A stretch of 60,094 nt of DNA from an uncultured Candidatus Cloacimonadota bacterium (GCA_964398885.1 CAYNOU010000003.1:997-61090), one strand, 5' to 3'; positions 1,590 to 59,715 are shown, counted from the stretch's first letter. Numbers and translations are program-made. Notes: generated by a model from the sequence alone, not told the origin.

Positions 1590-1605
1590 TCCCGACAAGT
1601 CGGGA
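1590..1605. repeat. Short GC-rich palindrome, TCCCGA family
   Basis: TCCCGAC-AA-GTCGGGA in an intergenic region. Confidence 0.85.
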
Positions 1606-1670
1606 TTCACATGTATGTTTCATCTCTAATCGTAAATAAATAGAGAATCTAAATATTAATGTAAATTGCT

Positions 1671-2915
1671 ATGCTTGTATTATCAATAGTTTTAGTTATA
1701 TTTATAATCTATGCCATTTTTGAATATCAGCGTCAACAAAGGTATAGAAAGAATATTCCATTAGTAATTCATGTAAATGGCACTCGTGGCAAATCAAGTG
1801 TTACAAGATTAATAGCAGCTGGTTTACAAGCAGGAAACATAAAAACAATTGCAAAAACAACAGGTTCCGCTCCAAGAATAATTTTGGAGAATGGAAATGA
1901 AATTCCTATTATCCGATATTTTGGACCAAATATTAAGGAACAATTAAAGATATTCAGATTTGCTTCTAAAAGAAATATAGATGCACTGGTTCTTGAATGT
2001 ATGGCAATTAATCCTGAATATCAATGGATAACTGAACAGAAGATAACCAAATCCGATATTGGGGTGATTACCAATATAAGACCTGATCATCTTGATGTGA
2101 TGGGACCAGGAATAAAAAATGTTGCATATTCAATATGTAATACATTACCTAAAAATGGAAAAGCTTTTACAAGTGAGCAAAAGCTATTTCCTATAATGAA
2201 AAAAGTTGCTGAGAAGCAAAATATTGATCTGCAATATGTGGAGAGTAATTATGTGTCTGATGAAGATATGAAAGGATTTCCATATATTGAACATAAAGAG
2301 AATGTGGCTTTGGCATGGGAAGTTTGTAACAGCTGTGGTGTTAAAAAGGAGATTGCTCTTAATGGTATGAAAAAAGTAAATCCTGATATTGGAGCTACAA
2401 AATTATTTTTGTTAAAGGATAAAACCAAGGAAATCTATTTTGCTCATTCTTTTGCTGCCAATGATCCTGAATCAACGAAGTTTGTTATGAATTACATAAA
2501 AAATATGGACATAGATATTGAATATACTGGAATTATATTAAATACTCGGGCTGACCGAATGTTTCGTTCAAAACAGTTGATTAAGATGCTTAGTGAAATT
2601 AAATTTAATATGCTTTATTTGATTGGCGAGGAAACTGCAAGAATACAATCCTATGCTTTAAAACACAAGATCTATTCAGATAAAATTTGTAATCTTGGCT
2701 GGATTGAAGGAGAAAATCTTATTAAACAAGTATTAAAAGTTAAATCACGAAAAATATTATTAATTGGAATTGGAAATATTGGAGGGAATGGCAGAATTAT
2801 AGTAAAATATTTCAGTGAAAAGCAAGGCAATAAGCCACAAGAACACACCCTTTCTCCGTCCCGATATAATCGGGACTGCGAAGCCCGCCTGCCAAGCCTT
2901 GGCGGGCAGGGGTGA
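1671..2915 (+). CDS. capB: Poly-gamma-glutamate synthase PgsB/CapB
   Basis: HVNGTRGKSSVTRL, AKTTG, LECMA, DHLDVMGP and FAANDP motifs. The last ~30 codons derive from repeat DNA. Confidence 0.93.
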   Translation: MLVLSIVLVIFIIYAIFEYQRQQRYRKNIPLVIHVNGTRGKSSVTRLIAAGLQAGNIKTIAKTTGSAPRIILENGNEIPIIRYFGPNIKEQLKIFRFASKRNIDALVLECMAINPEYQWITEQKITKSDIGVITNIRPDHLDVMGPGIKNVAYSICNTLPKNGKAFTSEQKLFPIMKKVAEKQNIDLQYVESNYVSDEDMKGFPYIEHKENVALAWEVCNSCGVKKEIALNGMKKVNPDIGATKLFLLKDKTKEIYFAHSFAANDPESTKFVMNYIKNMDIDIEYTGIILNTRADRMFRSKQLIKMLSEIKFNMLYLIGEETARIQSYALKHKIYSDKICNLGWIEGENLIKQVLKVKSRKILLIGIGNIGGNGRIIVKYFSEKQGNKPQEHTLSPSRYNRDCEARLPSLGGQG

Positions 2916-3003
2916 ACAAAAGAGCACAAAAGTAATTTTTGATTTTAGTGAATTTTCGTGTTAATTTGCTTGCCTTGCCGTAGTTCGACGAAGGCAGGTG
3001 GCT
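2833..3003. repeat. AGCCAC...GTGGCT composite element with three nested palindromic cassettes
   Basis: Outer inverted ends enclose GTCCCGATATAATCGGGAC (2858-2876), CCCGCCTGCCAAGCCTTGGCGGGCAGG (2884-2910) and a TGCCTT...AAGGCAGG cassette (~2969-2998). Confidence 0.7.
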
Positions 3004-3024
3004 GAAGTTCCTAAGGAGAACAAA

Positions 3025-3557: not shown

Positions 3558-3575
3558 TCCCCGCGGACGCGGGGA
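3558..3575. repeat. Short palindrome TCCCCGCG-GA-CGCGGGGA
   Basis: Perfect 8-bp stem. Near-identical copy at 59603-59620. Confidence 0.8.
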
Positions 3576-5616: not shown

Positions 5617-5638
5617 CAAATGGAATTCCTTCCTTCTC

Positions 5639-5682
5639 CGTTCCCAATCCCCAATTCAATTGGGGAGGGCGTTGGGAACGAG
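5639..5682. repeat. GTTCCCAA...TTGGGAAC REP-like hairpin with nested TCCCCAATTCAATTGGGGA
   Basis: Nested inverted repeats. Near-identical copy in reverse orientation at 36675-36717. Confidence 0.85.
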
Positions 5683-12135: not shown

Positions 12136-12151
12136 TCCCGATATATCGGGA
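12136..12151. repeat. TCCCGA-family palindrome
   Basis: TCCCGAT-AT-ATCGGGA just downstream of the maf stop codon. Confidence 0.8.
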
Positions 12152-12748: not shown

Positions 12749-12793
12749 TTATTATTATCTGGGTTTGTAACTAATTTACTAATTTACCAATTT

Positions 12794-12895
12794 ACCCCGT
12801 TAGATAATTTATAAGAAAATTTATAACTCTTTTTTATATCCACCAATTGGCTGATAGTATAATATTTATATAAAAACATAAATATCTAACGGGGT
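12794..12895. mobile_element. 102-bp MITE-like element
   Basis: Perfect 13-bp terminal inverted repeats ACCCCGTTAGATA / TATCTAACGGGGT around an AT-rich non-coding core, interrupting a TAATTTAC-type tandem array. Confidence 0.7.
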
Positions 12896-12913
12896 GAACT
12901 AATTCAACTAATT

Positions 12914-12943
12914 TCCGCCAAAGGCGGATCCGCCTTCGGCGGA
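12914..12943. repeat. 30-bp double hairpin, TCCGCC family
   Basis: TCCGCC-AAA-GGCGGA-TCCGCC-TTC-GGCGGA. Confidence 0.9.
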
Positions 12944-12951
12944 CAACCAGT

Positions 12952-14703
12952 TTAACCAATTAACTTATCTATAATTTCCTTTAGAGTCTTTTCTATTTCT
13001 TCAAAATTGCAAATTATCCTTTCTCCAGTTTTTCTAATTTTGAACTCAACCTTTTTATATTTGAAATTTTTCTGACCAACAATTATCTGGATTGGTATTC
13101 CAATCAAATCTGCTTCTTTGAATTTGATACCAGGGCTTACATCTCTGTCATCAAAAAGAATCTCAATATTAATATTTTGAATTTTTTGATAAAGGGTATC
13201 ACAAAATTTTGTTATCTTTTTATCTTCAGTGGTGAGATTTATCAATTCCACTTGATACGGAGCGATTGAAATAGGCCAGATAATGCCATCCTTGTCATAG
13301 TTTTGTTCAATTGCAGCAGCCATTGTGCGAGTAATTCCTATTCCGTAACAACCCATTTGATAGGGGATAGCATCTCCATTTTCCGCTGTATAAGTAGCAT
13401 TCATTGCTTTGCTGTATTTATCTCCGAGTTGGAATATTTGTCCCACTTCAATGCCACGAAAGGATGTCATAGGTTTGCCACACTTAGGACAGGGATCACC
13501 TTCTTTTGCAAGGATGAAATCAGAATATTCTGTAATATTTGCATCTCTTTCAAGGTTTACATTTTTGTAGTGATAATCTTTTTCATCAGCACCAGCAACC
13601 ATATTCCTCATTTCTTTTAGATTTATATCAGCATAAATTTGAATATTTTTTTTGCCAACTGGACCGACAAAGCCAGCAGTAGAACTTGTAAACCTTGCTA
13701 TTTCCTCTTCTGTAGCAAATTCCAATTCTGTAGATTTTTCGTCCTTCGTCCCGATTATATCGGGACTACGGAGAATGGATAAGAAATTTGCAACTTTTAC
13801 ATTGTTGATTTCTCTATCACCTCGTATTAGAATAGCGACAAATTTATCATTAGATTTATATATGATTGTTTTAAGAAGTTGTTTTTTATCAATCTTAAGA
13901 AATTTACTGACTTCATCTGCTGATTTCTTATTTGGAGTGTGAACTTTTTCAAGATTTTTCATTTCTTCGTTTGAATTATTTTTCAAAGGAGCAATTTTGC
14001 AATTTTCTCTTGTTGCCGCATATCCACATTTACAGTGCAACACCTCTGATTCACCAGTTTCAGCCAGAACCATAAATTCATGAGAAAGCGACCCCCCAAT
14101 TGGACCAACATCAGCTTCAACAGCAACAGTTTTTAAACCACATCTTTCAAAAATTCGTGTATAGGCTTTGTGCATTTCATCATAAGTTTTTAGCAAGCAT
14201 TCTTTATCCTTATGAAAACTATACGCATCCTTCATAATGAATTCACGAGCACGCATTACTCCAAAGCGAGGGCGGATTTCGTCACGAAACTTCGTCTGAA
14301 TTTGATATAAATTTATAGGTAATTCTTTATAAGATTTTATTTCGTTTTTTGCGAGAATAGTAATTACTTCCTCATGCGTGGGTCCAAGAGCGAATTCTCG
14401 GTTATGTCTATCTCTCATTCGCATCAATTCAGGTCCATAAACATCCCATCTACCAGATTGTTTCCATATTTCCTTTGGATGTAAAACTGGCATAAGTATC
14501 TCTTCACAACCAATCTTATTGAGTTCTTCTCTGACAATACTTTCAATTTTGTTTATAACTCTTTTTGTTAATGGTAAATAGGAGTATATTCCAGAACCCA
14601 ATTTCCTTAACATCCCACTGCGAATCATAAGTCTGTGACTGGGAATTTCAGCCTCTGCAGGAATCTCTTTAAGTGTAGGAATAAATGCTTTGGAAAATCG
14701 CAT
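12952..14703 (-). CDS. proS: Proline--tRNA ligase (bacterial type with editing domain)
   Basis: GPTHEE, FRDEIRPRFG, GIEVGQIFQLG and MGCYGIG motifs. GGAGG RBS precedes ATG 14703. Confidence 0.97.
   Translation of the reverse strand: MRFSKAFIPTLKEIPAEAEIPSHRLMIRSGMLRKLGSGIYSYLPLTKRVINKIESIVREELNKIGCEEILMPVLHPKEIWKQSGRWDVYGPELMRMRDRHNREFALGPTHEEVITILAKNEIKSYKELPINLYQIQTKFRDEIRPRFGVMRAREFIMKDAYSFHKDKECLLKTYDEMHKAYTRIFERCGLKTVAVEADVGPIGGSLSHEFMVLAETGESEVLHCKCGYAATRENCKIAPLKNNSNEEMKNLEKVHTPNKKSADEVSKFLKIDKKQLLKTIIYKSNDKFVAILIRGDREINNVKVANFLSILRSPDIIGTKDEKSTELEFATEEEIARFTSSTAGFVGPVGKKNIQIYADINLKEMRNMVAGADEKDYHYKNVNLERDANITEYSDFILAKEGDPCPKCGKPMTSFRGIEVGQIFQLGDKYSKAMNATYTAENGDAIPYQMGCYGIGITRTMAAAIEQNYDKDGIIWPISIAPYQVELINLTTEDKKITKFCDTLYQKIQNINIEILFDDRDVSPGIKFKEADLIGIPIQIIVGQKNFKYKKVEFKIRKTGERIICNFEEIEKTLKEIIDKLIG
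13744..13773. repeat. Palindromic cassette inside proS
   Basis: CTTC-GTCCCGATTATATCGGGAC-TACGGAG, matching the cassette at 2854-2883. Confidence 0.85.
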
Positions 14704-14919
14704 TAATGCCTCCAATTTAATATTATTAAACATAAATCATCCTAATTAAAATTGATGTCAAGAAATGCTCCATAAGAACAACTTAATTTCAACTTATAAT
14801 GAAATAATCTTGACGGTAAATTATTTTTCGAGAAATTTATCTTTAATCAATAAAATTCAATCTATCGAAAATCAAAATTGTCGTAGATAGAAAGACAAAT
14901 TTAAAGAAAAAAGGCACTT

Positions 14920-17900: not shown

Positions 17901-19878
17901 AGATGGGAATATGTATACCAACTATGATGCAGATAATCACTACTTTGTAATAGAATGGTCTGAGTGGAGCAATGTTTATAATCCTGAACTAAAGGAAACA
18001 TTTGAAGTTATTTTATATGACCCTGAATTTTACGCTACTGCATCAGGAGAAGGTGAAATACTTTTTCAATATAAAGAAATATACAATGTTGATCAGGAGG
18101 AAAATTATGCTACAGTAGGCATAGAAAACGAATCCCAGACTGATGGATTATTGTTAAGTTATGCTAATATTTGTTCGCCAACAGCACATCCTTTACAAAA
18201 TGAAACAGCCATATTATTCACAACCAAAGAAAGTCCTACCATTCCTTATTTAACTGCTGAGCCAGGAGCCGTAACTGTTTCCATTCCGTCAGGCACCTCC
18301 ATTAGCCAAAATATTTCTCTTGTAAATAATGGGGAACCCGGCTCTAGCTTGACTTATACAATCACTCTTTCACATTTCTTCAAAGGTTCGGGAGTCTTAG
18401 ATGGGAAAAGCGGAAAAAGTATTGAAAACGATTTCATCATCAGTGTTACAAATGAGTATATTCCTATTATGCCAATGGATATCAACTTTTATCTATATCA
18501 TAATAGTCCTGATAATGAGCCTGTCTATGGGGCAAAGATAGATTTTCCTCCAGGATTCTTTGTAAATAATTCAACAGATATTGGTCCATTAAGTTATAAT
18601 AATGAAACAGGTGATGGGGTGGAAGTAAGTTGGGGATTTGATAATGGTGAGGTTTTATCTGCGACAGGAGTTTATGGGTTTATTGTAAATGTTACCATTG
18701 ATGAAAGTCATACAGAACCAATTGAGTTGGATTGGTTCATACAGGGTGATGGCACTGGGGCAGAACCTCATACACAAAATGGAACAATTACTATAGCACC
18801 AACGAGTGATTCTTATCTCTGGTTAACATATCCTAATGGTGGAGAAAAGATGGTCTATGGTTTGGCAGATAGTATAAAATGGCAACATTATGGAGATATT
18901 GAAGAAGTCAATATAAAACTATCTTTTGATAATGGTTCTACATGGCAAATGTTAGCTGAAGAAGTTGCTAATACTGGATTTTATGAATTCATTGTTCCCG
19001 GCCCATTATCTGATGATTGCAAAGTCAAAATCAGTTCTATTGATGGGTCTGATTATGATATTTCTGATGATGTATTCCAAATTACTGCTTTAAATATTGA
19101 ATATCCAAATAATGGTGTAATAATGGTCTATAATACCCAGGATACTATAAAGTGGATAGATTGTGGCGGGATTGACAAAGTGAATATTGAGTTATCAAGA
19201 GATAATGGCTTTATCTGGGAGACGCTTGCCAGTGAGGTTGATAATACTGGTTTTTATGAATTTACTATAACTGGTCCTCCATCAGATGAATGCAAAATAA
19301 AAATAAGCAGTTTAGATGGCCAGATTTTTAATATCTCTTCTGGTTTATTTAGTATAGTTGATTCACCGATTTATTGGATAATTCCTAATCAAATAACTGG
19401 TTCAATTGCTGGAGAGCAAACCAAGGAGATAACCGTAACCATTTCAAGTGAAGGTTTACAAATTGGAACTTATCAAGCTTTTATTAAGATTACAACTAAT
19501 TTAGGTCAGATAGTTGATATACCAGTAACTTTAAATGTAATTGAATCAGATGTAGAGTACAAATCAAAACTTTTTCAGAACTATCCCAATCCCTTTAGTC
19601 ATTCAACAATAATATCTCTTAGTTTAGCCACCAGTCTTCGCTACGCTACGCCCCGGCAGGCAGAGAACGCACAAGTAACAATTTATAACATAAAAGGGCA
19701 ACTTATAAAAACTCTCATCCCAATCCCGATAAATCGGGATGACAAATTTCAAATGACAAATGTAATTTGGGATGGAAAAGATGAAAAGGGCAATCCTATA
19801 AGTTCAGGCTTATACTTTTATCAACTTAAAATTGGGAATAAAATAATTGATACAAAGAAATGTATTTTGTTAAAATAA
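14920..19878 (+). pseudogene. Gingipain-like C25 peptidase with T9SS-type CTD, interrupted by one in-frame TAG (17521-17523)
   Basis: Propeptide and C25 motifs (IIGD, GRIS, SITCG, YNLLGDP). The same frame continues open after the TAG (ELTFSIPIG...) through the 17734 ORF to the CTD. Confidence 0.8.
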
Positions 19879-36789: not shown

Positions 36790-36813
36790 TGAGTATTTCA
36801 TTCTATCTTAAAC

Positions 36814-37240: not shown

Positions 37241-38167
37241 TTAATTTTTCTTAATTTTTTCTTGCTCTATTGTGGAGTTAATATAATTTATGAATTCTTT
37301 AGCATCCTTTCCTAAAGGACTTTCCGGGAAATTATTAAGAATCCTTTGCAATGTATTTTTTGCTCCGATGGACTCTTTTAGTCTGTAAAGGCATAATGCA
37401 TGATTGAAGAGAATCATATCCAGGTCCGGATAATCTGGATATTCAGTCTCAATTTGAGTTAATCTTTCTAATGCTTCAGTAAATTGATAGCGTTTATAAT
37501 ATAACATTGCAATTTTTGCTTGAATTTCTGGAATTTTCATAATTAATGTGTCTATAGGGCTGGCTTTCTCAATCCTTTTTAAAATAGAATTATATGTTTC
37601 TTCTGCTTTGTCATAGTTCCCTCGCCTTTTATAGACCTCTGCAAGTTGTTTATGAATGTCAATGCTATCAGGATGTAATTCAGCATTTTTAAGTAAGTTT
37701 GAAAAATAATTCTTATTATTTAGAATAAAGTTTGCTTTTCTAATGAATTGTTCCGCAGGGAGATAACCAATAATTCTATCAATTTCACCTGTCCCCGCGG
37801 TCCCCGATCCAACCCCCGATTTAATTGGGGGGGAGGGGACAGGATTAACAAAAATGGTGGTCGGAAAGCCAGATATATTGTAAGAATTGGTTATACTTTT
37901 GTTTTCGGGAAGACTTGAATTTATTTTTGTTGGAATTACATTATCATTTAAAAAGTTTATCACATTTGAATCTTGATAAGTTGTTTCTTCCAATTTTTTA
38001 CACCATCCGCACCTGTCTGAAGAGAAGTCTATCATAATTACTTTGTTTTCATTTTTTGCTTTCTCTATTGCCGCAGGAAATGAATCTGTCCATTGTAAAG
38101 AGTCCTGGGCTGAAAGTATAGTTGATAATAAGAATAGTATAACAATTATGAAAAGTATTTTTTGCAT
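37241..38167 (-). CDS. Exported thioredoxin-fold (CGWC) plus TPR protein
   Basis: Signal peptide, CGWC, GFPT cis-Pro loop, C-terminal TPRs. Confidence 0.85.
   Translation of the reverse strand: MQKILFIIVILFLLSTILSAQDSLQWTDSFPAAIEKAKNENKVIMIDFSSDRCGWCKKLEETTYQDSNVINFLNDNVIPTKINSSLPENKSITNSYNISGFPTTIFVNPVPSPPIKSGVGSGTAGTGEIDRIIGYLPAEQFIRKANFILNNKNYFSNLLKNAELHPDSIDIHKQLAEVYKRRGNYDKAEETYNSILKRIEKASPIDTLIMKIPEIQAKIAMLYYKRYQFTEALERLTQIETEYPDYPDLDMILFNHALCLYRLKESIGAKNTLQRILNNFPESPLGKDAKEFINYINSTIEQEKIKKN
37788..37843. repeat. 56-bp CCTGTCCCC...GGGGACAGG cassette inside the thioredoxin gene
   Basis: 9-bp terminal inverted repeats with nested CCCCCGATTTAATTGGGGG. Confidence 0.85.
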
Positions 38168-39856: not shown

Positions 39857-40000
39857 ATATGGAGTGCGAAAACGCGTCCCGACGAGTCGGGACAAACTTT
39901 TCGCTTGTGCTGATGCGCTGAAAGTTCGTTCCAATAAATTGGAACTCGTTTTCCGCCAGAGGCGGATCCGCCAAGCTTTTTGGCGGACAGCACTCCATAT
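39857..40000. repeat. TGGAGTGC...GCACTCCA composite REP-like element, copy 1
   Basis: 11-bp terminal inverted repeats; nested GTCCCGACGAGTCGGGAC, GTTCCAATAAATTGGAAC and a TCCGCC double hairpin. Confidence 0.85.
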
Positions 40001-42921
40001 CAAAAAATAATAATTTTCGGTCTAACAACTCCTGCACGAATCTGTGTATGTCCATTGATATATGCCAGTTTTCCGTTAGATTTTTTGAAAAACTCTCTAT
40101 ATTTCTCATTCATAGAAAAATCCCCGAAACCTTCAGTTAAAATAATCGGATATGGTATTTTTTCACTGCCAGTCAAGGCAACTCCTATCTCTTCTCCAAT
40201 AAATCTTACTAAATCTTTATTGTCAATAGATGGTGTAATAATTCCAGAGATTTCTGCTTCTGCTCCTTGTTTTAAAGTATCAAACCTAATTTTTTCAAAG
40301 CAAACAATAATCTTATTCTTATATTTCTCTTTTGAGAGTTCAAAAGAGATTCCTGAAAGAGAAAGTAATTCATTCGTTGCTTCACCGCCAAAACCGATAG
40401 TTCCATTCAAATTGCTTCCTTCATATTCTATTACTGCTGAGAGGTGCTTTTGTATAGAGATAACTTTGCCTGAGACAGCAGCAAATTTTTGATATGGCTC
40501 TTTTTTATAATGGATTGTAACAGTCCCTTTTTCTAAGTCAATATTAGTAATTGTACCTGTTGAAGGAGCAGGGACAAAAATTGCCTTTCCTCTCTCGTCT
40601 GACCTTGATGCAAGGGATTCATAAGCATTGACAAAATCGCCTTCTTTTTTCTTCAAATAGCCCTTAAGATGTTTTGGAGAAATACCCAATTTCTTAGATA
40701 CATTTACAGTAACAGGTTTTGTTGAGTAGTCTTGGATTTCTCGTAGAATTATTGTGCCTGCTTCAAAATTGATTTCTTCAACAATTCCGCGAATAGGTGA
40801 ACGATATATTGTTGTCTTTCCTGAAAAAGCAGCGGCTAAGCTGCTTGTGTGTGTATCTATGAGTTTTTGTCCAAAATTTATCTTATCCCCTTTTTTAACA
40901 AGGATACTTTGCCTCATTAGGTCAGGATTTAGGTCCAAATAATCCAGAGTGAAAACAGATAAGACATAAATTTTGGGCGGGTCATAACGATTTTCACCAA
41001 TCAATGTATCTGGCTGAACTTCATCTCCAACATTAACCATAATTTCGCCTTTATATGGCAAAGACCTTTTTATTGTATGTGTTCCATATTCAATATCTTT
41101 TTTCTCTAACATTTCCGCAAAACATTCGTTTAATTCTTCCTGTGAACTATCAAATTTGTAAAGATTCAATTCTTTATTCATTTTTTGGAATGATGTAAGC
41201 TCTTTTTTTCTTGTATCTATTAAAATCGGTAATTCAGAGGTAAGATTAATTTTTCTTTCAGAATTTTGTAGATAAAATCCTTTTTCTAATTCAATTTCTA
41301 TCTGATTTTTTTCATTGTTATCATTTGGAATAAGTTTTACTTCATTACTATTGATAGAGTATTTGATTTCATTTTCTTTATTTTTAATTGTAATTGATAG
41401 AACTTTTTGGCCTTCTTTCATCTTTTTATATATGGGTTTTATTACTAATGCGATTTTTTGATAGCATTCCTTTTGAAGTAGCGTGAGAGCGAGGTCTGGG
41501 TCTATATCACTCAGCTTTCCCAGATGAGGAGAGATAAAATGATTATCGCGCCAGATTTCTGTTATACCCTGAGGATTAAGTCCATCAATTACACAAATCA
41601 ATGCTTGTCGTATATTTGGAGAATTAGAAATAATTCCACCAGCGCCAATCATAATATTAATATCTTTTTGATGAAACTTTCGTTTATCATTCATTTTTTC
41701 AATATAAAAGATTTCTACAAACTTGTCAAAATCTCTTTCTTTTAGTTTATTTAAGAAGCCAATTTTTACTGTATTGAAGTGCATTTTCATATGATGCTTT
41801 TTTGCCATTCTTATTGCTTCACGAGCTGCTGAATGCTCAATAGCAAGCTGATAGTCATCTTTTGGAATATATGCAGGATAAAGCATTTTATTGCTTATGT
41901 AATTTCTTATATAGTTTTCTGACATCTCATTTGGTAACCATCGTTTGATATTTTCAAAACCGGTATCTGCCATAACATTTGAAATACTATAACTCATTCC
42001 ATAATTAGCACTAACTGTCCGATAGTATCTTCCTAAAATATTTGAAAAGATATCAGTTGTAGCTCCACCGATATCAACTGCCATAACATTCTGATTTAAT
42101 TTTTGACTAATAAGTTTTAATGCATTTATCACTCCTGAAGGTGTAGGAATAATATCATCTGCTACAAATTTTTTGACATCACCATAACCAGGTGCTTGCT
42201 CCATAACATTATCCATAAAGAGTTGATGAATTCTCTTTTGTGCTGGAGGTAGGTTTTCTTCCTTTAAAGTGGGTCTTAAATTTGGAACTATATGCAAATC
42301 AAATTGTTTAGAGAATAGTGATTTTATAAAAGATTGAGCATTTTTATTTCCAGCATATACTAATGGTATTTTTGTCTTCTCTCCAAATTTTGGTTTAGGA
42401 TTTGCTAAAGAGATTAACTCTCCCAATCTGACAATACTGCTAATATTTCCTCCATCAGTTCCACCTGAAAAAAGGATAATATCTGGGCGGAGAATTCTTA
42501 TCAACTGCATTTTCTCTATTGGAGAACGATTGTCATTTATTGCAAAAGTATCTAAGATAACTCCACCAGAGCCGAAAGCTGCACGCTTCGCACTACTTGC
42601 AGAATCAAACAGAGTTAAACCGAAAACTAAAATCTGCAGTCCACCGCCAGCACTGCTTGTGGTAAGATAAATTGTGTCATTCGGGAAATGTAATTCTTCA
42701 ATTGTCGCATTATCAGAAAGAATTTTTTGCGAAATATTTTCTTCTAATTTTTTAATAGAGTTATAAATTCCAATTTTTACATCCTCAACAGGTTTTTCAA
42801 CAGTCGTGGGAATATGTTCTAATCCTATAAGTTTATATTTATTATTTTGTTTTTGAAATAAGACTGCCTTTGTTGTGGTGCTACCAATGTCAGTTATTAG
42901 AATGTTCTTTTTATCAATCAT
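40000..42921 (-). CDS. GlmL/MutL-like (glutamate mutase L) actin-fold ATPase fused to an uncharacterised C-terminal region
   Basis: TDIGSTTTKA, SSAGGGL and VDIGGATTD motifs. C-terminal ~350 aa contains barrel-sandwich-like VNVGDEV/VKKGDKI units. AGGAG RBS precedes ATG 42921. Confidence 0.75.
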   Translation of the reverse strand: MIDKKNILITDIGSTTTKAVLFQKQNNKYKLIGLEHIPTTVEKPVEDVKIGIYNSIKKLEENISQKILSDNATIEELHFPNDTIYLTTSSAGGGLQILVFGLTLFDSASSAKRAAFGSGGVILDTFAINDNRSPIEKMQLIRILRPDIILFSGGTDGGNISSIVRLGELISLANPKPKFGEKTKIPLVYAGNKNAQSFIKSLFSKQFDLHIVPNLRPTLKEENLPPAQKRIHQLFMDNVMEQAPGYGDVKKFVADDIIPTPSGVINALKLISQKLNQNVMAVDIGGATTDIFSNILGRYYRTVSANYGMSYSISNVMADTGFENIKRWLPNEMSENYIRNYISNKMLYPAYIPKDDYQLAIEHSAAREAIRMAKKHHMKMHFNTVKIGFLNKLKERDFDKFVEIFYIEKMNDKRKFHQKDINIMIGAGGIISNSPNIRQALICVIDGLNPQGITEIWRDNHFISPHLGKLSDIDPDLALTLLQKECYQKIALVIKPIYKKMKEGQKVLSITIKNKENEIKYSINSNEVKLIPNDNNEKNQIEIELEKGFYLQNSERKINLTSELPILIDTRKKELTSFQKMNKELNLYKFDSSQEELNECFAEMLEKKDIEYGTHTIKRSLPYKGEIMVNVGDEVQPDTLIGENRYDPPKIYVLSVFTLDYLDLNPDLMRQSILVKKGDKINFGQKLIDTHTSSLAAAFSGKTTIYRSPIRGIVEEINFEAGTIILREIQDYSTKPVTVNVSKKLGISPKHLKGYLKKKEGDFVNAYESLASRSDERGKAIFVPAPSTGTITNIDLEKGTVTIHYKKEPYQKFAAVSGKVISIQKHLSAVIEYEGSNLNGTIGFGGEATNELLSLSGISFELSKEKYKNKIIVCFEKIRFDTLKQGAEAEISGIITPSIDNKDLVRFIGEEIGVALTGSEKIPYPIILTEGFGDFSMNEKYREFFKKSNGKLAYINGHTQIRAGVVRPKIIIF

Positions 42922-42955: not shown

Positions 42956-43117
42956 TTGGAGTGCGAAAACGAATCCCGTCCCCGATTCAATTGGGGATTC
43001 GGAATGAATTTTTCGTCTGTGCTGGTGTGCTGAAAGTTCGTCGTCCCAACCTATCAGGACTTCTCGTTTTCCGCCAGAGGCGGATCCGCCAAGCTTTTTG
43101 GCGGACAGCACTCCCAA
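42956..43117. repeat. TGGAGTGC composite element, copy 2
   Basis: Same scaffold as 39857-40000, with 52 bp identical (39945-39996 = 43063-43114). Confidence 0.85.
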
Positions 43118-45091: not shown

Positions 45092-45118
45092 CCCGCCTAC
45101 CAATCCTTTACGGGCAGG
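45092..45118. repeat. 27-bp CCCGCCT...GGGCAGG cassette
   Basis: 23/27 identical to 2884-2910. Confidence 0.7.
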
Positions 45119-48419: not shown

Positions 48420-48449
48420 CCAGTCTTGGCTAGGCCAAGCCTAGACAGG
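48420..48449. repeat. 30-bp CCAGTCTT...CAGG cassette, intergenic copy
   Basis: 23/30 identical to in-frame CTD inserts at 19631, 27368 and 28550. Confidence 0.65.
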
Positions 48450-48522
48450 CGCCCAGACGGAAAGGATAAAAATTTTTAGCTAATATCTTATTTTAAATTA
48501 TATTGTTAATGGAAGGAGTGTA

Positions 48523-52994: not shown

Positions 52995-55865
52995 ATGAAA
53001 AAGAAACTTTGCTTTCTAACAATTCTGTTACTAATTTTCTCAGTTTCTCTTAGCTGGGCTATTGTAAAACAAGCTACTGTGCCTACAAACAAAACGGAGA
53101 GCACCCTTCCAAAAATCATAAATTCAGAAAGTCATCCCGTCATTCCCGAAGGCACTGTATTAAGATCAATCAAACATCATCAAGTAGCTCCAATTGACGA
53201 TGAATATGTGAATACCCGTTCAGATAAAGGTGGTGTTGAAACTGTATGGGCTGAAAATTTTGAAACTGAGGACGCATTTTGGTATTACACAGGTGCGGCT
53301 TACATAGTTACTCTTACTCCCGCCGACGAAATTGCCACAAGATTTACTCCATTCCATAATGGTACACTTGATGGAACCTGGATATACTTTTATGGTGGCG
53401 ATGCTACTGAAGTAACTATTAGTGTTTATGACAAGGATGCTAGCGGGTTGCCAGGAACGGTGCTTGGCTCACTTGATGTAGACCCTGGTGCTGGAAATAC
53501 AATAGATTTGTCCTCTTTAGGAATTACACTTACTAGTATGGAAGATTTCTTTATATCTGTTAAGATTAGTACCGGTTCTGACCTTAATGTGATTTGTGAT
53601 GATGGCTCAGGAACCGCTGCGCGTTCATTTAGTAATAGTGGTACTGGATGGATATCCGAAGCTCCTTATGAATGGTGCATTGATGCAATAGTTACTTGGA
53701 CTGACTCATGGACAACTGGAACTGGCAACTGGCAATATATTGAAAATGATACTATTCCTCACAGCCCCACACATTGCTGGTGGATTGATGAAGGGGTAGG
53801 CTATACCAATGACCCATTGGTTTCCCCGACTTTCCATCTTATACCAGGATATAATCTATACTTTATCAGTATGTGGATTAATATTGAATTTCCAAGAACA
53901 GTAGCCCCTACGGGTTATATTGATGAAACTTACAGACTGTGGATTGTAGATACAGATGCACCACTTGTTGATTATTGGCATATAGATGACCTGAATGCTT
54001 ATGAAGGTAATTCCTGGTGGTGTGGACTTGAAGACCCCACCTGGGCTGGTGGCTGGGGTTATGGTAATAATTGGAATCAATGGATTGAGACCCCTGACTT
54101 AGATTTATCCACATCCAGTCCAATTTCCCTTGATTTTATCCAACGCTATGATGTAGAGTTGGATTACGATTATTGTTATGTTGAAATTTCTACTGATAAT
54201 TGGGCTTCACAAACTACTCTTGCTACATATAATGGAACTAATAATACCTGGACTGCAGAGCAGATAGACCTTAGTAGTTATGCTAACGAAAATGTAAAAA
54301 TAAGGTTCCGCTTTATCTCTGATTCTGGCTGGTCTGATGAAGATGGTGATGATACTGAAGGTGCCTGGTTCATAGATAATGTTGTAATATCAGATGGCTC
54401 CACTACTTTCTTTGAAGATAATGCAGACGCTCAACAAAACTTCCTGGTAAATCCCGGCAATTTACCATGGGAAGCACTCTTCTATGATTATGATAGAGAC
54501 TATCCTGCTCCTTCCTGTGGTTGGGAATTAATTGATAAAGATTATATTTTCAATGGCACATGTAATGTTACAGACTATGCTGATAAAGACATCAAACTTA
54601 AGGTAACTGTGTCCACAGACGATAGCACCTATGCCTTTGGTGCAGGCTTCTATGTTGATGATATAGATATCACAGGAATCTCTCTTCCTGAAGTTGATAT
54701 GGCTTGTGATTTCACGCTTGTCCCATATCCATCAACTGTAGGGCTTGATATTAAATCAGATTTAACACCTAAAGTCATTATAAGTCAAAGAGGTTATGGA
54801 AGTTCAGCAGCTAACATACGTATTGATGTAGAAGATACAGGATTTGAACCTCCATTATTTGATTATTATGCACAAAATGCAGGTCCTTTAGGAATGGGTG
54901 AATACGGTCTATTTGATCTAACGAGAAATCCGGGCTATACCCCAGTAGAAGGGACTTATGATTATGTAGCCTGGGTAGAAGCAGCAGGAGATACCGTACC
55001 TGACAACGACTATGCTCCCCCAATGACTGTACAAATCTATCCCGCAGGTGAATATGAACTTGGATATAATAGCAGAGTAGCAGGTCTGTACTATTATCCT
55101 TATATATCAGGAGCATTAACCCATTATACCCCATTTAGTGATGGAATAGTTTCAGGTCCACAACAATTAAGCGGCGTAAGATGGCTCGCATATTATCGTG
55201 GTGGCGAACCAGGAGATTCTGGTGCTTTAACATTTGATGTATATGATGCCATTGATGACACCACATTTGGAGATCTTCTTCATCATGAAGAGATCACTTT
55301 CTCTGCCACAAAATTTGAATGGACATCAATTCCATTTAGTGAATCTGTAACGGTTGATGGGGATTTCTTTATTCTAGTAACAGGTGTGTGGCCTGAAGCA
55401 GGAACTAGTCCAGATAGTTTGGTGTATTTTATGCTCTGTGATAATAATACAGCAGATCTTCTTGGCGAAAGTTATTATGCTGGACATTCTTTCGATTATG
55501 ATCCGGAGACGGGAGAAATGTCTGAGCTCGAAAATGATTTATACTGGAATGCTTTACTGAATATAGAAATAGGTGTTGACCCAGGTCAGGAACCTGAAGT
55601 AGCAACAACTTACCTTAATCAGAACTTCCCGAACCCAGTAACTTCAAATACAAATATCTCATTCAACCTAAAAGCAAATTCTGATGTTAAAATTTCAGTT
55701 TATAACATTAAAGGTCAGTTAGTTGAGACATTGGTAGATAATAAAATGGAGAAAGGACCTCATACTCTTACTTGGAATAACAAATCTCTTTCTAATGGAA
55801 TCTATTTCCTCAGATTAGAGACTAAAGAAACTACAATTACAAAGAAGATGGTTATTCTGCGATAA
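52995..55865 (+). CDS. Large secreted acidic protein with adhesin/immune-inhibitor-like beta-sandwich domains and T9SS-type CTD
   Basis: Signal peptide, YDYCYVEIS and IRFRFISD...WFIDNV motifs, CTD. AAGGAG RBS. Confidence 0.8.
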   Translation: MKKKLCFLTILLLIFSVSLSWAIVKQATVPTNKTESTLPKIINSESHPVIPEGTVLRSIKHHQVAPIDDEYVNTRSDKGGVETVWAENFETEDAFWYYTGAAYIVTLTPADEIATRFTPFHNGTLDGTWIYFYGGDATEVTISVYDKDASGLPGTVLGSLDVDPGAGNTIDLSSLGITLTSMEDFFISVKISTGSDLNVICDDGSGTAARSFSNSGTGWISEAPYEWCIDAIVTWTDSWTTGTGNWQYIENDTIPHSPTHCWWIDEGVGYTNDPLVSPTFHLIPGYNLYFISMWINIEFPRTVAPTGYIDETYRLWIVDTDAPLVDYWHIDDLNAYEGNSWWCGLEDPTWAGGWGYGNNWNQWIETPDLDLSTSSPISLDFIQRYDVELDYDYCYVEISTDNWASQTTLATYNGTNNTWTAEQIDLSSYANENVKIRFRFISDSGWSDEDGDDTEGAWFIDNVVISDGSTTFFEDNADAQQNFLVNPGNLPWEALFYDYDRDYPAPSCGWELIDKDYIFNGTCNVTDYADKDIKLKVTVSTDDSTYAFGAGFYVDDIDITGISLPEVDMACDFTLVPYPSTVGLDIKSDLTPKVIISQRGYGSSAANIRIDVEDTGFEPPLFDYYAQNAGPLGMGEYGLFDLTRNPGYTPVEGTYDYVAWVEAAGDTVPDNDYAPPMTVQIYPAGEYELGYNSRVAGLYYYPYISGALTHYTPFSDGIVSGPQQLSGVRWLAYYRGGEPGDSGALTFDVYDAIDDTTFGDLLHHEEITFSATKFEWTSIPFSESVTVDGDFFILVTGVWPEAGTSPDSLVYFMLCDNNTADLLGESYYAGHSFDYDPETGEMSELENDLYWNALLNIEIGVDPGQEPEVATTYLNQNFPNPVTSNTNISFNLKANSDVKISVYNIKGQLVETLVDNKMEKGPHTLTWNNKSLSNGIYFLRLETKETTITKKMVILR

Positions 55866-55879: not shown

Positions 55880-55920
55880 AAGCCCTATCCCGATAAATCG
55901 GGATGGGGCTTTTATTTTTT
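55880..55920 (+). terminator. Intrinsic terminator whose stem includes the TCCCGA palindrome
   Basis: AAGCCCT-ATCCCGATAAATCGGGAT-GGGGCTT followed by a T-rich tract. Confidence 0.8.
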
Positions 55921-55939: not shown

Positions 55940-57823
55940 ATGACGAAAAAAGTAAAACAATCACTTAAAATCCAACCAATAATTTATTTATTTTCTCTCT
56001 TAATTTTTACTAATCCATTTTTCATAACAAAAAAATACCTTTTATTTTTTCCATATAGACTTTTAGTACTTCAAATTCTAATTTTGGTTATTTGCATTCT
56101 TTTTTTTCTTTCACCCAAATATAAATTTAATAAAAAGAAATATCTCCCATTCTTGATTATTGGCATATATCTTTTTTATAATGTTATTAGAGCTATTTTT
56201 TCAATCCGCCAGATGGCGGATTATAGTTTAGATGTTTTAATATATTTAATCCCTTCAATAATCCTATTTTTTATTATCTCGCAAATTAAAATTAATAAAA
56301 ATGAAAGAAGTTTAATTGCAGGTTCATTTGTTTCCAGTTTTCTTCTTTCAATCATTCCGGGATATTTTCTTCAATCACAGACTGTTGTTTGTTTTTCTCG
56401 TCTTAGTCTAAATTGGGCAAATCCTAATTATTATGCGAGTTATCTCTTAATTACTATCGGTTTTACTATCTATTTATGGAAATTATATTCAAATAAGAAT
56501 GCTAAAAAAAACTGGATAAAATATTTTTCTCTTTTATCATTAATTTTAATTATTGTATTTTTATTCTGGACACAATCGCGTGGAGGTCTCCTTGCTTTTT
56601 TATTAGTGATGACTATTTTTGTATTAGCATACAGTATAAAAGGGTCAAAATTTAAACTTCTTACAACTTTAGTAATTATACTATTAATATTATTCATAGG
56701 ATTATTTTATACTTTTCAAAAAATTCGTCCAGCCACAATTACTTTTAGAGAAAGGATTTATAAATCAACTTTTGATTATATAAAAGATTTCTGGTTGTTT
56801 GGCAGTGGTCTTGGTTCTTTTGCGCATTATTTTCCAAAGTATAGGCAAAGTGATTACAAATTGATAGGACAAGAAGATATTATTACACATACTCACAATG
56901 AATTTATGGAACAATGGGCTGAAACCGGTATAATAGGACTACTACTTTTTTTAGGATTTATTATTGTAATAATATTAGAAGCTATAAAGAAAATTTCAAT
57001 ATTTGAAGCGGAAAGGAAATATTTTATCGGTGCATGCTTGCTATCCTTTCTGCTTTTTATTACTCATAATCTCTTTACCATTACCATGCGACTATCTCCA
57101 TTACAAATCTATTTTTATATTCTTGCAGGCTTAATTTTTGCTAATTATGAGGAAATAAATATTAAAATAAATAGAACGAATAAAAAGAAATATATTCTAT
57201 TCATTCTTATCCCTTTGTTTCTATGGTTAATCTCAATAAATATAAGAAATATAACGGGATTGGGTTATTTTCAGAAATCAAAAGAGATATTTGATATTTC
57301 TAAATTTAGACTATCAACTTCTATCAAATATGCTGAAAAAGCAGAAAAATATATTCCTCATAATGCTGCTTTGCTTTATCATCTTGGTTATTCTTATAAT
57401 TATAAAAAGGATTATAAAAAGTCCATTGAGTTTTTCAATCGTTTGCTTAAGATATCACCTTATTACCCACAAGCTCATTTCTGGAAAGGTTATATTTATT
57501 CTTTGAACAATAATTGGAATAAAGCTATAAATGAATATAAAGATGAGTTAAAATATGACCAATATCCTAAAGTATACTTTAATCTTGCGATAGCTTATTA
57601 TTATAGTAATGATGAAAAATCATCTATTAGTTATTTACAAAAATATGTAGAAAAAATTGTTGAAAAAATAGAGAAAAATCTTGTTTTAGACAGAGAAAGG
57701 ATTTTATCTCAAGAGAAAAGGAACCTTAATTTTGCTTTTGAAAATCTAAAAAAATACTACATTGACAAAGATAAAGATAAAATTTCAGAGTTAGAACAGA
57801 TTAAAAAAATTCTGTCCCCGTAA
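55940..57823 (+). CDS. O-antigen ligase (WaaL/Wzy_C)-family protein with C-terminal TPRs
   Basis: NPN..ASYL, TQSRGG, FGSGLGSF and HTHNE...AETGIIG motifs; TPRs. Confidence 0.85.
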   Translation: MTKKVKQSLKIQPIIYLFSLLIFTNPFFITKKYLLFFPYRLLVLQILILVICILFFLSPKYKFNKKKYLPFLIIGIYLFYNVIRAIFSIRQMADYSLDVLIYLIPSIILFFIISQIKINKNERSLIAGSFVSSFLLSIIPGYFLQSQTVVCFSRLSLNWANPNYYASYLLITIGFTIYLWKLYSNKNAKKNWIKYFSLLSLILIIVFLFWTQSRGGLLAFLLVMTIFVLAYSIKGSKFKLLTTLVIILLILFIGLFYTFQKIRPATITFRERIYKSTFDYIKDFWLFGSGLGSFAHYFPKYRQSDYKLIGQEDIITHTHNEFMEQWAETGIIGLLLFLGFIIVIILEAIKKISIFEAERKYFIGACLLSFLLFITHNLFTITMRLSPLQIYFYILAGLIFANYEEINIKINRTNKKKYILFILIPLFLWLISINIRNITGLGYFQKSKEIFDISKFRLSTSIKYAEKAEKYIPHNAALLYHLGYSYNYKKDYKKSIEFFNRLLKISPYYPQAHFWKGYIYSLNNNWNKAINEYKDELKYDQYPKVYFNLAIAYYYSNDEKSSISYLQKYVEKIVEKIEKNLVLDRERILSQEKRNLNFAFENLKKYYIDKDKDKISELEQIKKILSP

Positions 57824-57941
57824 AAATTAATAACATCATTTTTAAAGAACTGTAATGAGATAAATTTTTTTCTTTACTACGAAAATTGTTTAACACTTAA
57901 ATGGTTAAAATATTACTTATCAATAAATATCTAAGGGTAGG

Positions 57942-59582
57942 ATGAAATCAAAATACAGAGAACTTATAAAAGAAGTTACAGAAAGATACCCGGAAAGAAA
58001 AAAAGAGTTCTTGTCTGGTTCTTCCAACATTGTCAAAAGGCTTTATACACCTGAGGATACTGAGGAAGTAGATTTTGAATCTGATATTGGCTATCCCGGC
58101 TTGTATCCTTATACTCGTGGTGTTCAACCAACAATGTATAGAGGCCGCCTTTGGACAATGCGTCAGTATGCCGGTTTTGGAAATGCTGAGGAATCTAACA
58201 AAAGATATAAATATCTGCTTTCACAGGGTCAAACTGGGCTTTCTATAGCATTCGACCTTTGCACTCAAATTGGATATGATTCTGACCATTCAATGAGCAG
58301 AGGTGAGGTCGGTAAAGTCGGCGTAGCTATTGATTCGCTTGCAGATATGGAAACACTTTTTGATGGAATTCCTTTGGACAGGATTTCAACTTCAATGACA
58401 ATTAATTCAACCGCAGCAATACTTTTAGCTATGTATATAGCAGTGGCAGAAAAACAAGGGGTGTCAAAAGAAAAACTGAAAGGTACTATTCAAAATGATA
58501 TTCTAAAAGAATATATTGCAAGAGGGACATATATTTTTTCACCGAAACCATCAATGCGTTTGATTACAGATATTTTTAAGTATTGCTCGGAAAATATTCC
58601 GCTTTGGAATACCATATCCGTCTCAGGCTATCATATTCGTGAAGCTGGCTCAACTGCTGCTCAAGAAGTTGCATTTACTCTTGCAGATGGAATCGCTTAT
58701 GTAGAAGCTGCAATAAAGGTTGGGTTGAATGTAGATGATTTTGCACCAAGAGTTTCATTCTTTTTTAATTCTCATAACGACTTATTTGAAGAGGTTGCAA
58801 AATTTAGAGCTGCAAGAAGATTGTGGGCAAAGATTATGAAACAAAGATTTAATGCGAAGAATCCAAAATCAATGAAAATGAGATTTCATACTCAAACTGG
58901 AGGCTCAACTTTAACGGCTCAACAGCCTGACAATAATATTGCTCGTGTCACAATTCAAACACTTGCAGCAGTTCTTGGAGGAATGCAATCTCTGCATACA
59001 AATTCAAGAGATGAAGCATTAGCTCTTCCAAGCGAAGATTCAGTTAGAATTGCTCTTAGAACACAACAGATTGTTGCTTATGAAAGTGGCGTTTGCAATA
59101 CAATTGACCCATTAGCAGGTTCTTATTTTATAGAAAGTACAACAAATCAGATTGAAGAGAAAGCAATGGAATACATTTCTCAAATTGATGAACTGGGCGG
59201 AATGGTTGAAGCTATTGAGAAAGGATATGTGCAAAAACAGATTCAAGATAGTGCTTACAAATATCAGAAACAAATAGAGAATGAAGAAAGAATTATTGTA
59301 GGACTTAATAAATTTGTCACAGAAGAGGAGCCGCGCAGAAACCTTTTGAAAGTTGATGAATCAGTTGAGAGATTACAAGTTGAGAAATTGAAAAAAATCA
59401 AACAAGAAAGAGATAATCATAAAGTAGAAATGGCACTAAAAAAGATTAGAGAGACTGCAAAATCCTCTGATAATTTGATGCCTGTAATTTTTGAAGCTGT
59501 TAAAGTATACGCTACTTTAGGTGAGATATGTGATGTTTTGCGTGAGGAATTTGGAGAATATGAAGAACAGCTTGTGCTGTAA
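57942..59582 (+). CDS. Methylmalonyl-CoA mutase, substrate-binding subunit
   Basis: RQYAGF (Tyr) and KEYIARG (Arg) specificity residues; [14 protein letters not shown] and SLHTN motifs. Confidence 0.92.
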
Positions 59583-59587
59583 ATTTA

Positions 59588-59715
59588 GCCACAAAGACTC
59601 AATCCCCGCGGACGTGGGGACACAAAGGGTTAATACAAATTTTATTTGCTGTAAAAATTTGTTTGTTGACAGAGGAAATGATTTTATATTCTTGGTGCCT
59701 TAGTGCCTTTGTGGC
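59588..59715. repeat. 128-bp GCCACAAAG...CTTTGTGGC element with nested TCCCCGCGGACGTGGGGA
   Basis: 9-bp terminal inverted repeats; nested palindrome at 59603-59620. Confidence 0.8.

Follow-up and report, generated by a model that had tools for sequence, protein, structure and literature searches.

Locus and genome features

The window, the whole stretch of 60,094 nucleotides analyzed here, lies on one contig (G000:C3:997-61090) of a Candidatus Cloacimonadota draft genome (G000) and encodes, among other products, a prolyl-tRNA synthetase (ProRS) and, at 17.7-33 kb, seven paralogous proteins with type IX secretion system (T9SS) C-terminal domains (CTDs; Por_Secre_tail and FlgD_ig) at their ends. 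Between and within these genes lie very small GC-rich palindromic cassettes, which nest in hairpins, in larger repeats, and in each other. Four classes were distinguished: class a, TCCCGA..TCGGGA; class b, TCCGCC..GGCGGA; class c, CC..CAGG 27-30-mers; and class d, palindromes ending (C/T)GGGGA. An earlier note on this DNA had listed 29 such sites, and all 29 hold the palindromes it described or close variants, the variants being GTTCCAATAAATTGGAAC at 39928, a cassette with a G.T mismatch at 42979, and a degenerate first unit at 28738.

The G000 assembly comprises 2.56 Mb in 126 contigs, with 33% G+C, 97.7% completeness, and 0.34% contamination, and some stretches are masked. Two congeners were aligned to the window: G002 (~90% identity, with synteny across most of the window) and G001 (~80% identity). 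The nearest named records to the ProRS of G000 are Candidatus Cloacimonadota metagenome assemblies, with 84% and 69% identity.

Abundance and structure of the palindromes

The motifs exceed by a wide margin what composition alone would give. The pattern TCCCGA-N2-8-TCGGGA matches the window 9 times (mean of 0.01 in 100 dinucleotide shuffles) and TCCGCC-N2-8-GGCGGA 7 times (0.00 in the shuffles), while classes a, b, and d have 235, 78, and 27 copies in the genome and none in each of two 3rd-order Markov genomes. A class a control pattern, reversed but not complemented, had no match in any of the 31 related genomes used for family counts. The 2.56-Mb genome holds 347 CCCGA..TCGGG hairpins, and a blind scan returned 1254 perfect GC-rich hairpins, the commonest 5' arms being TCCCGAT, TCCGCC, CTTGGC, TCCCCAAT, CTAGGC, CTCGGC, and TCCCCGCG. 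Conservation in the main family ends exactly at T-CCCGAT-(2-5 nt)-ATCGGG-A, and its loops are about as frequent as their own reverse complements, so copies are present in both orientations. All of the tiny families (stems TCCCGAT, TCCGCC, TCCCCAAT, TCCCCGCG, and TCCACC) are bounded by TCC...GGA; they are perfect palindromes of 16-19 nt with A/T-rich variable loops and frequently form tandem doublets.

Repeats of three tiers thus coexist in the genome: (i) classical repetitive extragenic palindromic (REP) hairpins of ~20-28 nt, each family flanking its own Y1/HUH gene of the REP-associated tyrosine transposase (RAYT) type; (ii) TCC...GGA palindromes of 16-19 nt; and (iii) composite repeats of 100-190 nt with other elements nested inside. 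Counted simply as words, the scaffold 8-mers show no enrichment (64 versus 50 and 35 in the Markov genomes); in hairpin form, however, they are dispersed repeats. Class c had been treated as one cassette class, but it is heterogeneous: the copies at 2884, 45092, and 48420 are hairpins, while those at 19631, 27368, and 28550 are one identical, non-palindromic 31-mer in three paralogous domains (fold z = 0.54). In some 20-mers, such as CTTGGCTAGGCCAAGCCTAG (window 48426; G000:C40:15128-15147), a CTTGGC/GCCAAG hairpin is interleaved with a CTAGGC/GCCTAG hairpin, and the two exclude each other.

Gain, loss, and nesting of cassettes

The noncoding and scaffold features of the window are as follows (no strand is assigned unless given).

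1590..1605: TCCCGAcaagTCGGGA cassette within a 40-nt insertion (1578-1617) that is absent in G002 and has one possible 7-nt direct repeat
2823..3014: composite GCCAC..GTGGC element, 192 nt, between pgsB and capC (fold z = -4.6), with cassettes at 2858-2876 (class a), 2884-2910 (class c), and ~2968-2997
3558..3575: class d cassette TCCCCGCGgaCGCGGGGA; matched in G002, at roughly this position, by CCCGATATCATCGGG
5636..5680: REP hairpin GTTCCCAA..TTGGGAAC (fold z = -6.0), its loop holding a TCCCCAATtcaATTGGGGA cassette at 5648-5666
12136..12151: TCCCGATatATCGGGA cassette; the G002 sequence differs here
12768..12914: ~145-nt repeat resembling a MITE (miniature inverted-repeat transposable element), its inverted ends being CCCCGTTAGATA..TATCTAACGGGG; also present in G000:C39 and in several relatives, and enlarged in G002 by an internal insert of 30 nt
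12914..12943: tandem double TCCGCC..GGCGGA cassette, absent in G002
36627..36797: composite repeat, 171 nt, that contains CATTCCCAAGC..TTGGGAATG with TCCCCAATtgaATTGGGGA (36690-36708) inside; absent in G002; 16 genome copies cover at least 60% of its length
39860..40005: TGGAGTGC..GCACTCCA scaffold (~5 genome copies) in which cassettes nest at 39876, 39928, and 39952-39987; in G002 the scaffold bears different inserts
42957..43113: TGGAGTGC..GCACTCCA scaffold again, here holding cassettes at 42979 and 43070-43105
45092..45118: class c hairpin by a tRNA cluster; decayed copy in G002
48420..48450: CCAGTC..GACAGGC hairpin with a nested 14-nt TTGGCTAGGCCAAG (48426), these inner 14 nt being absent in G002
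55887..55904, plus strand: ATCCCGATaaATCGGGAT within an AGCCC..GGGCT stem that precedes a T run and lies 22 nt past the stop of gene 52995..55865; terminator-like
59603..59620: TCCCCGCGgaCGTGGGGA cassette, class d; present in G002

Relatives were expected to carry empty as well as filled alleles, and both were found; the cassettes are insertion/deletion polymorphic between congeners. Relative to G002 and G001, sites 5648, 12914, 13737-13778, 28738, 43071, and 48426 are filled in the window only, and 24338, 32558, 32588, and 42965 are filled in G002 only, the latter including a TCCGCC cassette nested in a class c cassette within coding sequence. A wider survey took ~800 kb of G002, of which 598 kb aligned to G000, and required conserved flanks. 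Net differences of at least 9 nt formed 219 indel clusters, of which 108 have a GC-rich palindrome; 46 of the clusters are coding, and 16 of these carry a palindrome. Counting by cluster matters here, as plain BLAST-gap counts split events and yield false non-multiples of three.

Nesting is borne out by the G002 coding cassette and by two loci with three states each. Between pgsB and capC, the G002 sequence is 10 nt and that of G001 is a GCCAC..GTGGC element of 145 nt holding a single TCCCGAT cassette, to which the window adds cassettes of 27 and 30 nt. At 5648, G001 has nothing, G002 has a plain hairpin (GTTCCCAAC..GTTGGGAAC), and in the window the loop of that hairpin is occupied by TCCCCAATTCAATTGGGGA. 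The further proposal that cassettes target hairpins holds clearly for the TCCCCAAT family alone, in which 53% of copies lie within a perfect outer stem of at least 6 (4% for controls); for all families together, 13% of 385 tiny cassettes are so placed (4% of matched random sites). In G002, TCCCCGAT sits in the loop of a TCCCCAAT hairpin.

At window 2815-2915 the pgsB-like gene extends 30 codons into the composite repeat because a TAA codon of G001 is CAA in the window; in G002, which is without the repeat, the pgsB-like gene overlaps the capC start (ATGTTTGA). The two scaffold copies at 39860-40005 and 42957-43113 are direct repeats of ~130-150 nt, bounded by TGGAGTGC..GCACTCC, that bracket a 996-residue MutL-family (PF13941) gene. 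Their core is kept in G002, and three fixed positions host differing cassettes; the 35-nt double TCCGCC cassette at 43071 is absent in G002, where a different insert, of 25 nt, stands 100 nt off within that scaffold.

Such hairpins might instead be selected structural signals (terminators, RNA-stability elements, or protein-binding sites) that evolved in place and are not mobile DNA. The majority of copies are indeed intergenic, and the hairpin at 55887 would suit the role: it lies 22 nt past a stop codon, precedes a T run, and has pair-preserving changes on both arms in G002 and G001. This explanation nevertheless seems very unlikely for the class. A T run (either strand) accompanies 6 of 293 cassettes outside long open reading frames (ORFs), versus 288 of 3000 random intergenic 17-mers, and there is no enrichment between convergent genes. 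Identical stems are present or missing as 15-42-nt blocks at orthologous sites, coding DNA included, and copies inside genes decay by point mutation (56205 in G002). Intrinsic terminators were rejected as the identity of the cassette class on the same T-run counts, with 55887 as the exception.

The cassettes could also be artefacts of assembly or binning, as the genome is a metagenome-assembled draft in many contigs with masked stretches, and De Bruijn contigs from public runs break at cassettes. We consider the chance of this negligible, and the earlier note's concern about reads and assemblies can be set aside. Independent assemblies hold the same cassettes at the same sites (37813, 55887, 56205, and 59603 in G002; 2858, 27321, and 55887 in G001), and five other genomes contain hundreds of copies. 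Three of four public runs (X1, X4, and X7) yielded contigs that begin within the ProRS cassette, at 13746, and extend into the gene, and completeness is high and contamination low (above). Logan contigs break at cassettes without bridging them because the 31-mers there are repeated, and the pieces listed show only the right-hand junction of the ProRS insert.

Distribution among relatives

The TCCCGAT family has 162, 191, and 106 copies in G000, G001, and G002, respectively, and 38 and 69 in the other two genomes of the genus. Outside the genus there are 87 copies in G006 (a sister genus), 1 in G005, none in G008, and 0-4 in other classes. The TCCGCC family has 74 copies in G000, 77 in G005, and 116 in G019. 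Among the 31 related genomes, the two families expand independently.

Entry into protein genes

The following cassettes lie inside genes; genes A, D, E, F, and G are T9SS cargo paralogues of the 17.7-33 kb array, and the peptides are those predicted by translation.

13737..13778, minus strand: 42-nt in-frame insertion, a two-tier hairpin around GTCCCGATtatATCGGGAC, in the ProRS editing domain (gene 12952..14733); absent in G002 and G001
19631..19661, plus strand: class c 31-mer, read SLRYATPRQA, in the CTD of gene A
19723..19740, plus strand: ATCCCGATaaATCGGGAT, read IPINRD, in the CTD of gene A
27321..27339, plus strand: TCCCCGATttaATCGGGGA, read PRFNRG after NPFS, in the CTD of gene D; identical in G001
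27368..27398, plus strand: class c 31-mer in the gene D CTD, from which the G002 sequence departs by a net 21 nt
28550..28580, plus strand: class c 31-mer in the CTD of gene E
28738..28767, plus strand: double cassette TCCACC..GGTGA + TCCGCC..GGCGGA, read STRGESASGG, in the gene E CTD, where a model puts it at the tip of the final beta hairpin
30631..30646, plus strand: TCCGCCaactGGCGGA, read SANWR, in the CTD of gene F
30708..30725, plus strand: TCCCGATtataATCGGGA, read HPDYNRE, in the CTD of gene F
32586..32603, plus strand: TCCCGATgataATCGGGA, read VPMIIGK, in the CTD of gene G
37813..37831, minus strand: CCCCCGATttaATTGGGGG in a thioredoxin/TPR gene (37241..38167); also present in G002
56205..56220, plus strand: TCCGCCagatGGCGGA in a Wzy_C/TPR gene (55940..57823); decayed copy in G002

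The claim that many cassettes are translated applies to 11 window cassettes in real coding sequence (1 in ProRS and 10 in T9SS CTDs) but not to those at 2858 and 2884, which are read only via the CAA that replaces a relative's stop, nor to those at 42979 and 39952, which are probably outside true genes. The ProRS insert corresponds to query residues 319-332 (14 residues), opposite which the sequence of a solved ProRS structure has a gap. The insertion at 28738 is a clean 30 nt that is absent at the matched sites in G002 and G001 and in 7 of 8 aligned CTDs; its predicted peptide, STRGESASGG, interrupts YFYRL|KLGD in the CTD of gene E. In the loop of 32586 the G002 orthologue has instead a class c cassette with a TCCGCC cassette nested in it.

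In a translated alignment of the CTD paralogues, the cassettes are insertions in some domains and are missing from others. The genome encodes 149 proteins with a T9SS domain at the C terminus, and 32 of them contain cassette motifs. CTD inserts of at least 4 residues number 59 in all and cluster at five domain-profile positions, and one CTD has a 23-residue insert built of several cassettes, adjoining and within each other. Cassette density per kb is 0.37 in CTDs, 0.022 in other ORF interiors, and 0.48 outside long ORFs; the first value is close to the intergenic one, so the sorting domain tolerates cassettes almost as noncoding DNA does. In a model of one CTD, one cassette peptide lies between strands 1 and 2 and the other sits at the tip of the final hairpin; the model is of modest confidence (mean pLDDT of 65) and was used solely for placing inserts relative to strands.

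Insertions are not confined to secretion signals. Genome-wide, 92 of 385 tiny cassettes (24%) lie within ORFs of at least 200 codons, and 41 strict cassettes occupy ORF interiors outside CTDs. In-frame cassettes occur in housekeeping genes encoding ProRS, LysRS, DnaG primase, PcrA, RecJ, HypF, the indolepyruvate oxidoreductase alpha subunit, Nnr, and alanine racemase (Alr); another cassette lies in the gene for a GlmS-like protein.

The reading frame is respected almost throughout. Between G000 and G002, 45 of the 46 coding indel clusters are multiples of three, as are all 16 that bear a palindrome. When the frame was judged in the insert-free allele, palindromic insertions were in frame in 9 of 10 cases and in all 7 with at least 100 open codons on each side; no cassette inside a called ORF adds a stop codon. 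Alignments, frame tests, and the CTD model together support the earlier proposal that in-frame insertion would add peptide loops. A conceivable alternative is that the inserts are never translated and are removed from the RNA or bypassed, like the byp elements of Magnusiomyces mitochondria. Its precedent is that GC clusters in the coding regions of one yeast mitochondrial genome are bypassed in translation, according to PMC8811140. Bypassing or excision would, however, allow any length, and the multiples of three (16/16, and 9/10 in the unbiased test) and the lack of introduced stops make it highly improbable here. Selection for frame on the coding insertions, judged from genomic comparison, is clear and argues against both ribosomal bypassing and RNA excision; byp-like bypass elements were rejected as a class for the cassettes on the same grounds.

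Cassettes also mislead gene calling: intergenic clusters (e.g., C20:2419-2469 and C41:11326-11376) give rise to spurious ORFs of 70-130 codons and to false N-terminal extensions, e.g., MLKTMFNPPDVSGGK... ahead of signal peptides.

Y1/HUH enzymes and REP families

The earlier note saw no mobilizing enzyme in the window. The window indeed has none, but the contigs of the genome contain 12 matches to PF01797 (Y1_Tnp). Five of the genes pass the RAYT profile NF047646 (cut-off of 80 bits) at 86.5-122.7 bits, and 3 more score 56-66. Four Y1 genes are IS200-like, one of them scoring 70 bits against NF033573.

Every RAYT gene has a palindrome of its own on either side, and orthologues across G000-G003 retain these flanks. 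The flank families are TCGTCAGGGA..TCCCTGACGA; (C)WTTACCAAGC..GCTTGGTAAWG; GTTCC(C/A)AAAC..; TGGTTCAATTT.. with TGGTTCAGGTA..; GTGCCCGGGGATG..; and a GTAG-tagged CCGAACC..GGTTCGG. Among the larger hairpins, CGTCAGGGA, WTTACCAAGC, GTTCC[C/A]AAAC, TGGTTCA.., and GTGCCCGGG belong to such flank families. The GTTCCCAA..TTGGGAAC stem also flanks RAYT C76, and the window scaffold of that type is thus the REP of one RAYT; part of what had been described as larger scaffolds therefore consists of ordinary REPs flanking RAYT genes. Beside two RAYT genes, at G000:C11:14402-14700 and G000:C15:14872-15300, are tandem arrays of REP-bearing units (...attaccaagccccaatatatcctc...), partly masked as N. The IS200-like genes, each a diverged single copy, have other hairpins at their flanks, one of which nests a TCCGTC cassette.

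The earlier suggestion that RAYT or IS200-type genes might be flanked by the same motifs as the window consequently stands for the larger palindromes but not for the tiny TCC...GGA cassettes. No enzyme link was found for the latter in the flanks of the 12 Y1 genes, the RAYT orthogroups of G001-G004 and G006, the RAYT counts of the 31 genomes, or the profile of IS200-like orthologues. A family search of the genome did not find IS110, TnpB, or reverse transcriptase, a weak negative given that multi-copy insertion sequences are often missing from drafts. No enzyme could be tied to the tiny cassettes, and what is said below of transposition chemistry is accordingly conditional.

Origin and spread of the tiny cassettes

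That the feature is real, abundant, and lineage-specific is apparent from the genomes compared: a REP/RAYT-rich genome also carries ultra-small TCC...GGA palindromes, which nest and which are predicted to be translated within secretion signals and housekeeping enzymes. We judge it probable, with considerable room for doubt, that the cassettes make up families of very small DNA elements, hairpin-forming and non-autonomous, that are moved in trans and are gained and lost over the time in which the species of one genus diverge. Copies insert without a recognizable target duplication, often swapping out a few bases. Landing is mostly intergenic, and within genes only stop-free multiples of three persist, predicted to be read as extra peptide. 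Cassettes build up in the loops of T9SS CTDs to near intergenic density and only sporadically in housekeeping enzymes, and the secretion domain may be permissive because it is merely a removable sorting signal. The elements may move as single-stranded hairpins handled in trans by at least one of the 12 Y1/HUH enzymes, and recombination between copies and between paralogous domains may spread and reshuffle them.

Several observations weigh against this explanation. None of the 12 Y1 genes examined has a TCC...GGA cassette directly beside it as a cognate REP, and the ~11 tiny cassettes in the ~12 kb that flank these genes represent ordinary intergenic density (a hand estimate). Neither RAYT counts nor IS200-like orthologues track cassette counts: G005 has 10 RAYT matches and an IS200-like orthologue but its single TCCCGAT copy, and G019 has its 116 TCCGCC copies without an IS200-like match. 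No conserved tetra- or pentanucleotide lies 5' of the cassettes, with flank information of ~0.1-0.3 bit beyond the first base, and many of the small events look like replacements of 1-8 target bases and not like clean insertions. The direction of change, gain or loss, is settled by an outgroup only at some sites (ProRS, 28738, 2884, and 5648). Recurrence at the same CTD site could reflect gene conversion between paralogues and not repeated insertion, and the translation of inserts is a prediction from sequence.

The earlier note had proposed looking for duplicated target bases; no consistent duplication was seen among 23 small events, nor was a target motif. This absence, with the frequent replacement of a few target bases, would suit a serious alternative for the tiny class, namely, copying without a transposase, by template switching or microhomology-mediated repair via the TCC/GGA ends, together with gene conversion between paralogous domains and repeat copies. 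Unrelated tiny families all share the TCC...GGA ends, TCC or GGA stands at the junction of several empty alleles (C42:8203, C47:6622, C37:23959, and C3:25336), and no cognate enzyme was found. Gene conversion would fit the two TGGAGTGC scaffolds of the window, which share one 36-nt double cassette that neither G002 copy has. Many paralogues are also filled at one and the same CTD site. Microhomology was, however, seen in a handful of events only, and family bursts of one to two hundred copies, with none in sister genera, favor a family-specific trans-acting factor. Insertions also hit unique genes such as that for ProRS, with no paralogous donor context. We regard this alternative as unlikely overall, although it deserves far more weight than in-place evolution, bypassing, or artefact.

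A bolder claim, that the TCC...GGA palindromes are a distinct class and the smallest mobile DNA known in bacteria (16-19 nt), we advance only tentatively, holding it possible and somewhat improbable. They would spread without an element-linked transposase, by a hairpin enzyme (of the host or acting in trans) that handles single strands with relaxed targeting or by microhomology copying, and would be a bacterial counterpart of mitochondrial GC clusters and a main source of protein-length change in the lineage. If true, this would imply continual remodeling of loops in a fifth of T9SS signals by the smallest class of mobile DNA, with a reach into aminoacyl-tRNA synthetases and replication proteins.

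How ultra-short palindromes move has been a question since their discovery in yeast mitochondria and cyanobacteria. The present lineage offers a tractable bacterial case, with many families in independent bursts, clean empty and filled sites, and a shortlist of 12 Y1/HUH genes. Selfish hairpins may be a steady source of new peptide loops, as about one-third of the longer coding indels between two congeners (16/46) carry one, which bears on the origin of protein insertions. There are practical effects as well: cassettes break short-read assemblies, create spurious ORFs and N-terminal extensions, and weaken domain matches, with several CTDs here falling below the Pfam cut-off.

Comparison with known systems

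The larger hairpins belong to the REP/RAYT kind. The tiny cassettes do not qualify as REPs, MITEs, or IS200/IS605 derivatives, though they work alike. Points of likeness to REP/RAYT systems are the dispersed, high-copy, GC-rich hairpins, the RAYT genes above the NCBIfam cut-off with their own flanking palindromes, the absence of target duplication, and two families, those of the C15 and C8 flanks, with GTAG- and CGTC-like tags, the families being those outlined in PMC3733652. REPs are 20-40 nt according to PMC3733652, whereas the cassettes are perfect, measure 16-19 nt, flank no RAYT, and lie in long ORFs in 24% of cases; at least 8 RAYT-like genes in one 2.6-Mb genome are a further difference. 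Assignment of the tiny cassettes to REPs was rejected, as these are not extragenic-only, imperfect 20-40-nt palindromes tagged with GTAG or CGTC but perfect 16-19-nt stems with T...A flanks only. MITEs were rejected too: the whole cassette is an inverted repeat, and the 23 small events were without consistent duplication.

Cyanobacterial small dispersed repeats (SDRs), which Elhai et al. reportedly described in 2008, are said to be ~21-27 nt, apparently mobile, and found inserted in other repeats and palindromes. PMC5861425 has SDR5 inserting at HIP1, and cyanobacterial SDRs are cited in PMC3116915. The cassettes differ in lineage and sequence, and equally frequent translation in protein loops is not known of SDRs.

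The earlier note held the known analogues to be usually larger and not nested in this way. SDRs, by the account above, would be one precedent for nested elements of such size, and yeast mitochondrial GC clusters are another: PMC8811140 describes the clusters as in-frame and polymorphic in var1, with shared termini, merging and shuffling, and an unsettled mechanism. Hairpin repeats also occur in sponge mitochondria, according to PMC2800124. Like GC clusters, the cassettes are short GC-rich palindromes in an AT-rich genome, mostly intergenic, in families that share terminal bases. The clusters, however, belong to organelles and the cassettes to a free-living bacterial lineage with Y1/HUH genes, and the AG/TAG terminal repeats there are read as target duplications in the same source, whereas here none is seen and the termini are TCC...GGA. 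The cassettes share the features of a functional class of GC cluster- or SDR-like ultra-small mobile palindromes (short, polymorphic, nested, some in frame, and with no element-encoded enzyme), with no homology implied.

Rickettsia palindromic elements are, according to PMC2229807, 105-146 bp and present in 19 reading frames, including gmk. The cassettes resemble them as palindromic repeats in frame and tolerated inside conserved protein genes, but they are 16-42 nt, in another phylum, without sequence likeness, and prominently nested. The chemistry of IS200/IS605 TnpA, given in PMC3116915 as hairpin dependent and single stranded with no target duplication, would by analogy fit the cassettes, and G000 has four IS200-like genes; on the other hand, no target tetra- or pentanucleotide lies by the cassettes, TnpB was not found, and the IS200-like genes have other flanking hairpins. 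Among the titles and abstracts of the matches listed for palindrome, REP, and MITE topics, none linked Cloacimonadota to such repeats; by these titles and abstracts, the works appear to deal with CRISPR or with other subjects.

Other genes and minor features

At the Rfam 15 gathering score the only matches in the window are 4 tRNAs. Within the tRNA cluster at 45140-45537, G002:C24 is longer by 490 nt at 45346, where it holds the duplicated end of a tRNA, some masked bases, and a small ORF resembling, by eye only, a GIY-YIG nuclease; at 45247 another G002 insert, of 30 nt, bears a TATGGC direct repeat. One peptidase C10 gene, whose product has a T9SS CTD (27653-28818), is split into overlapping ORFs, 27653..28147 and 28096..28818, by a one-base difference from G002 near 28140, where a check for a cassette found none; the split gene is either a pseudogene or a sequencing error. 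The first part of the window (1-11500) contains poly-gamma-glutamate genes (for a PgsB-like Mur ligase and a CapC-like protein), and a PGA_cap domain is encoded in gene 24532..27606. These poly-gamma-glutamate genes adjoin the array of seven T9SS cargo paralogues (17700-33000) and a C25 peptidase gene. Across the genome, the T9SS C-terminal domain profile is matched by 154 of 2249 called proteins (~7%).

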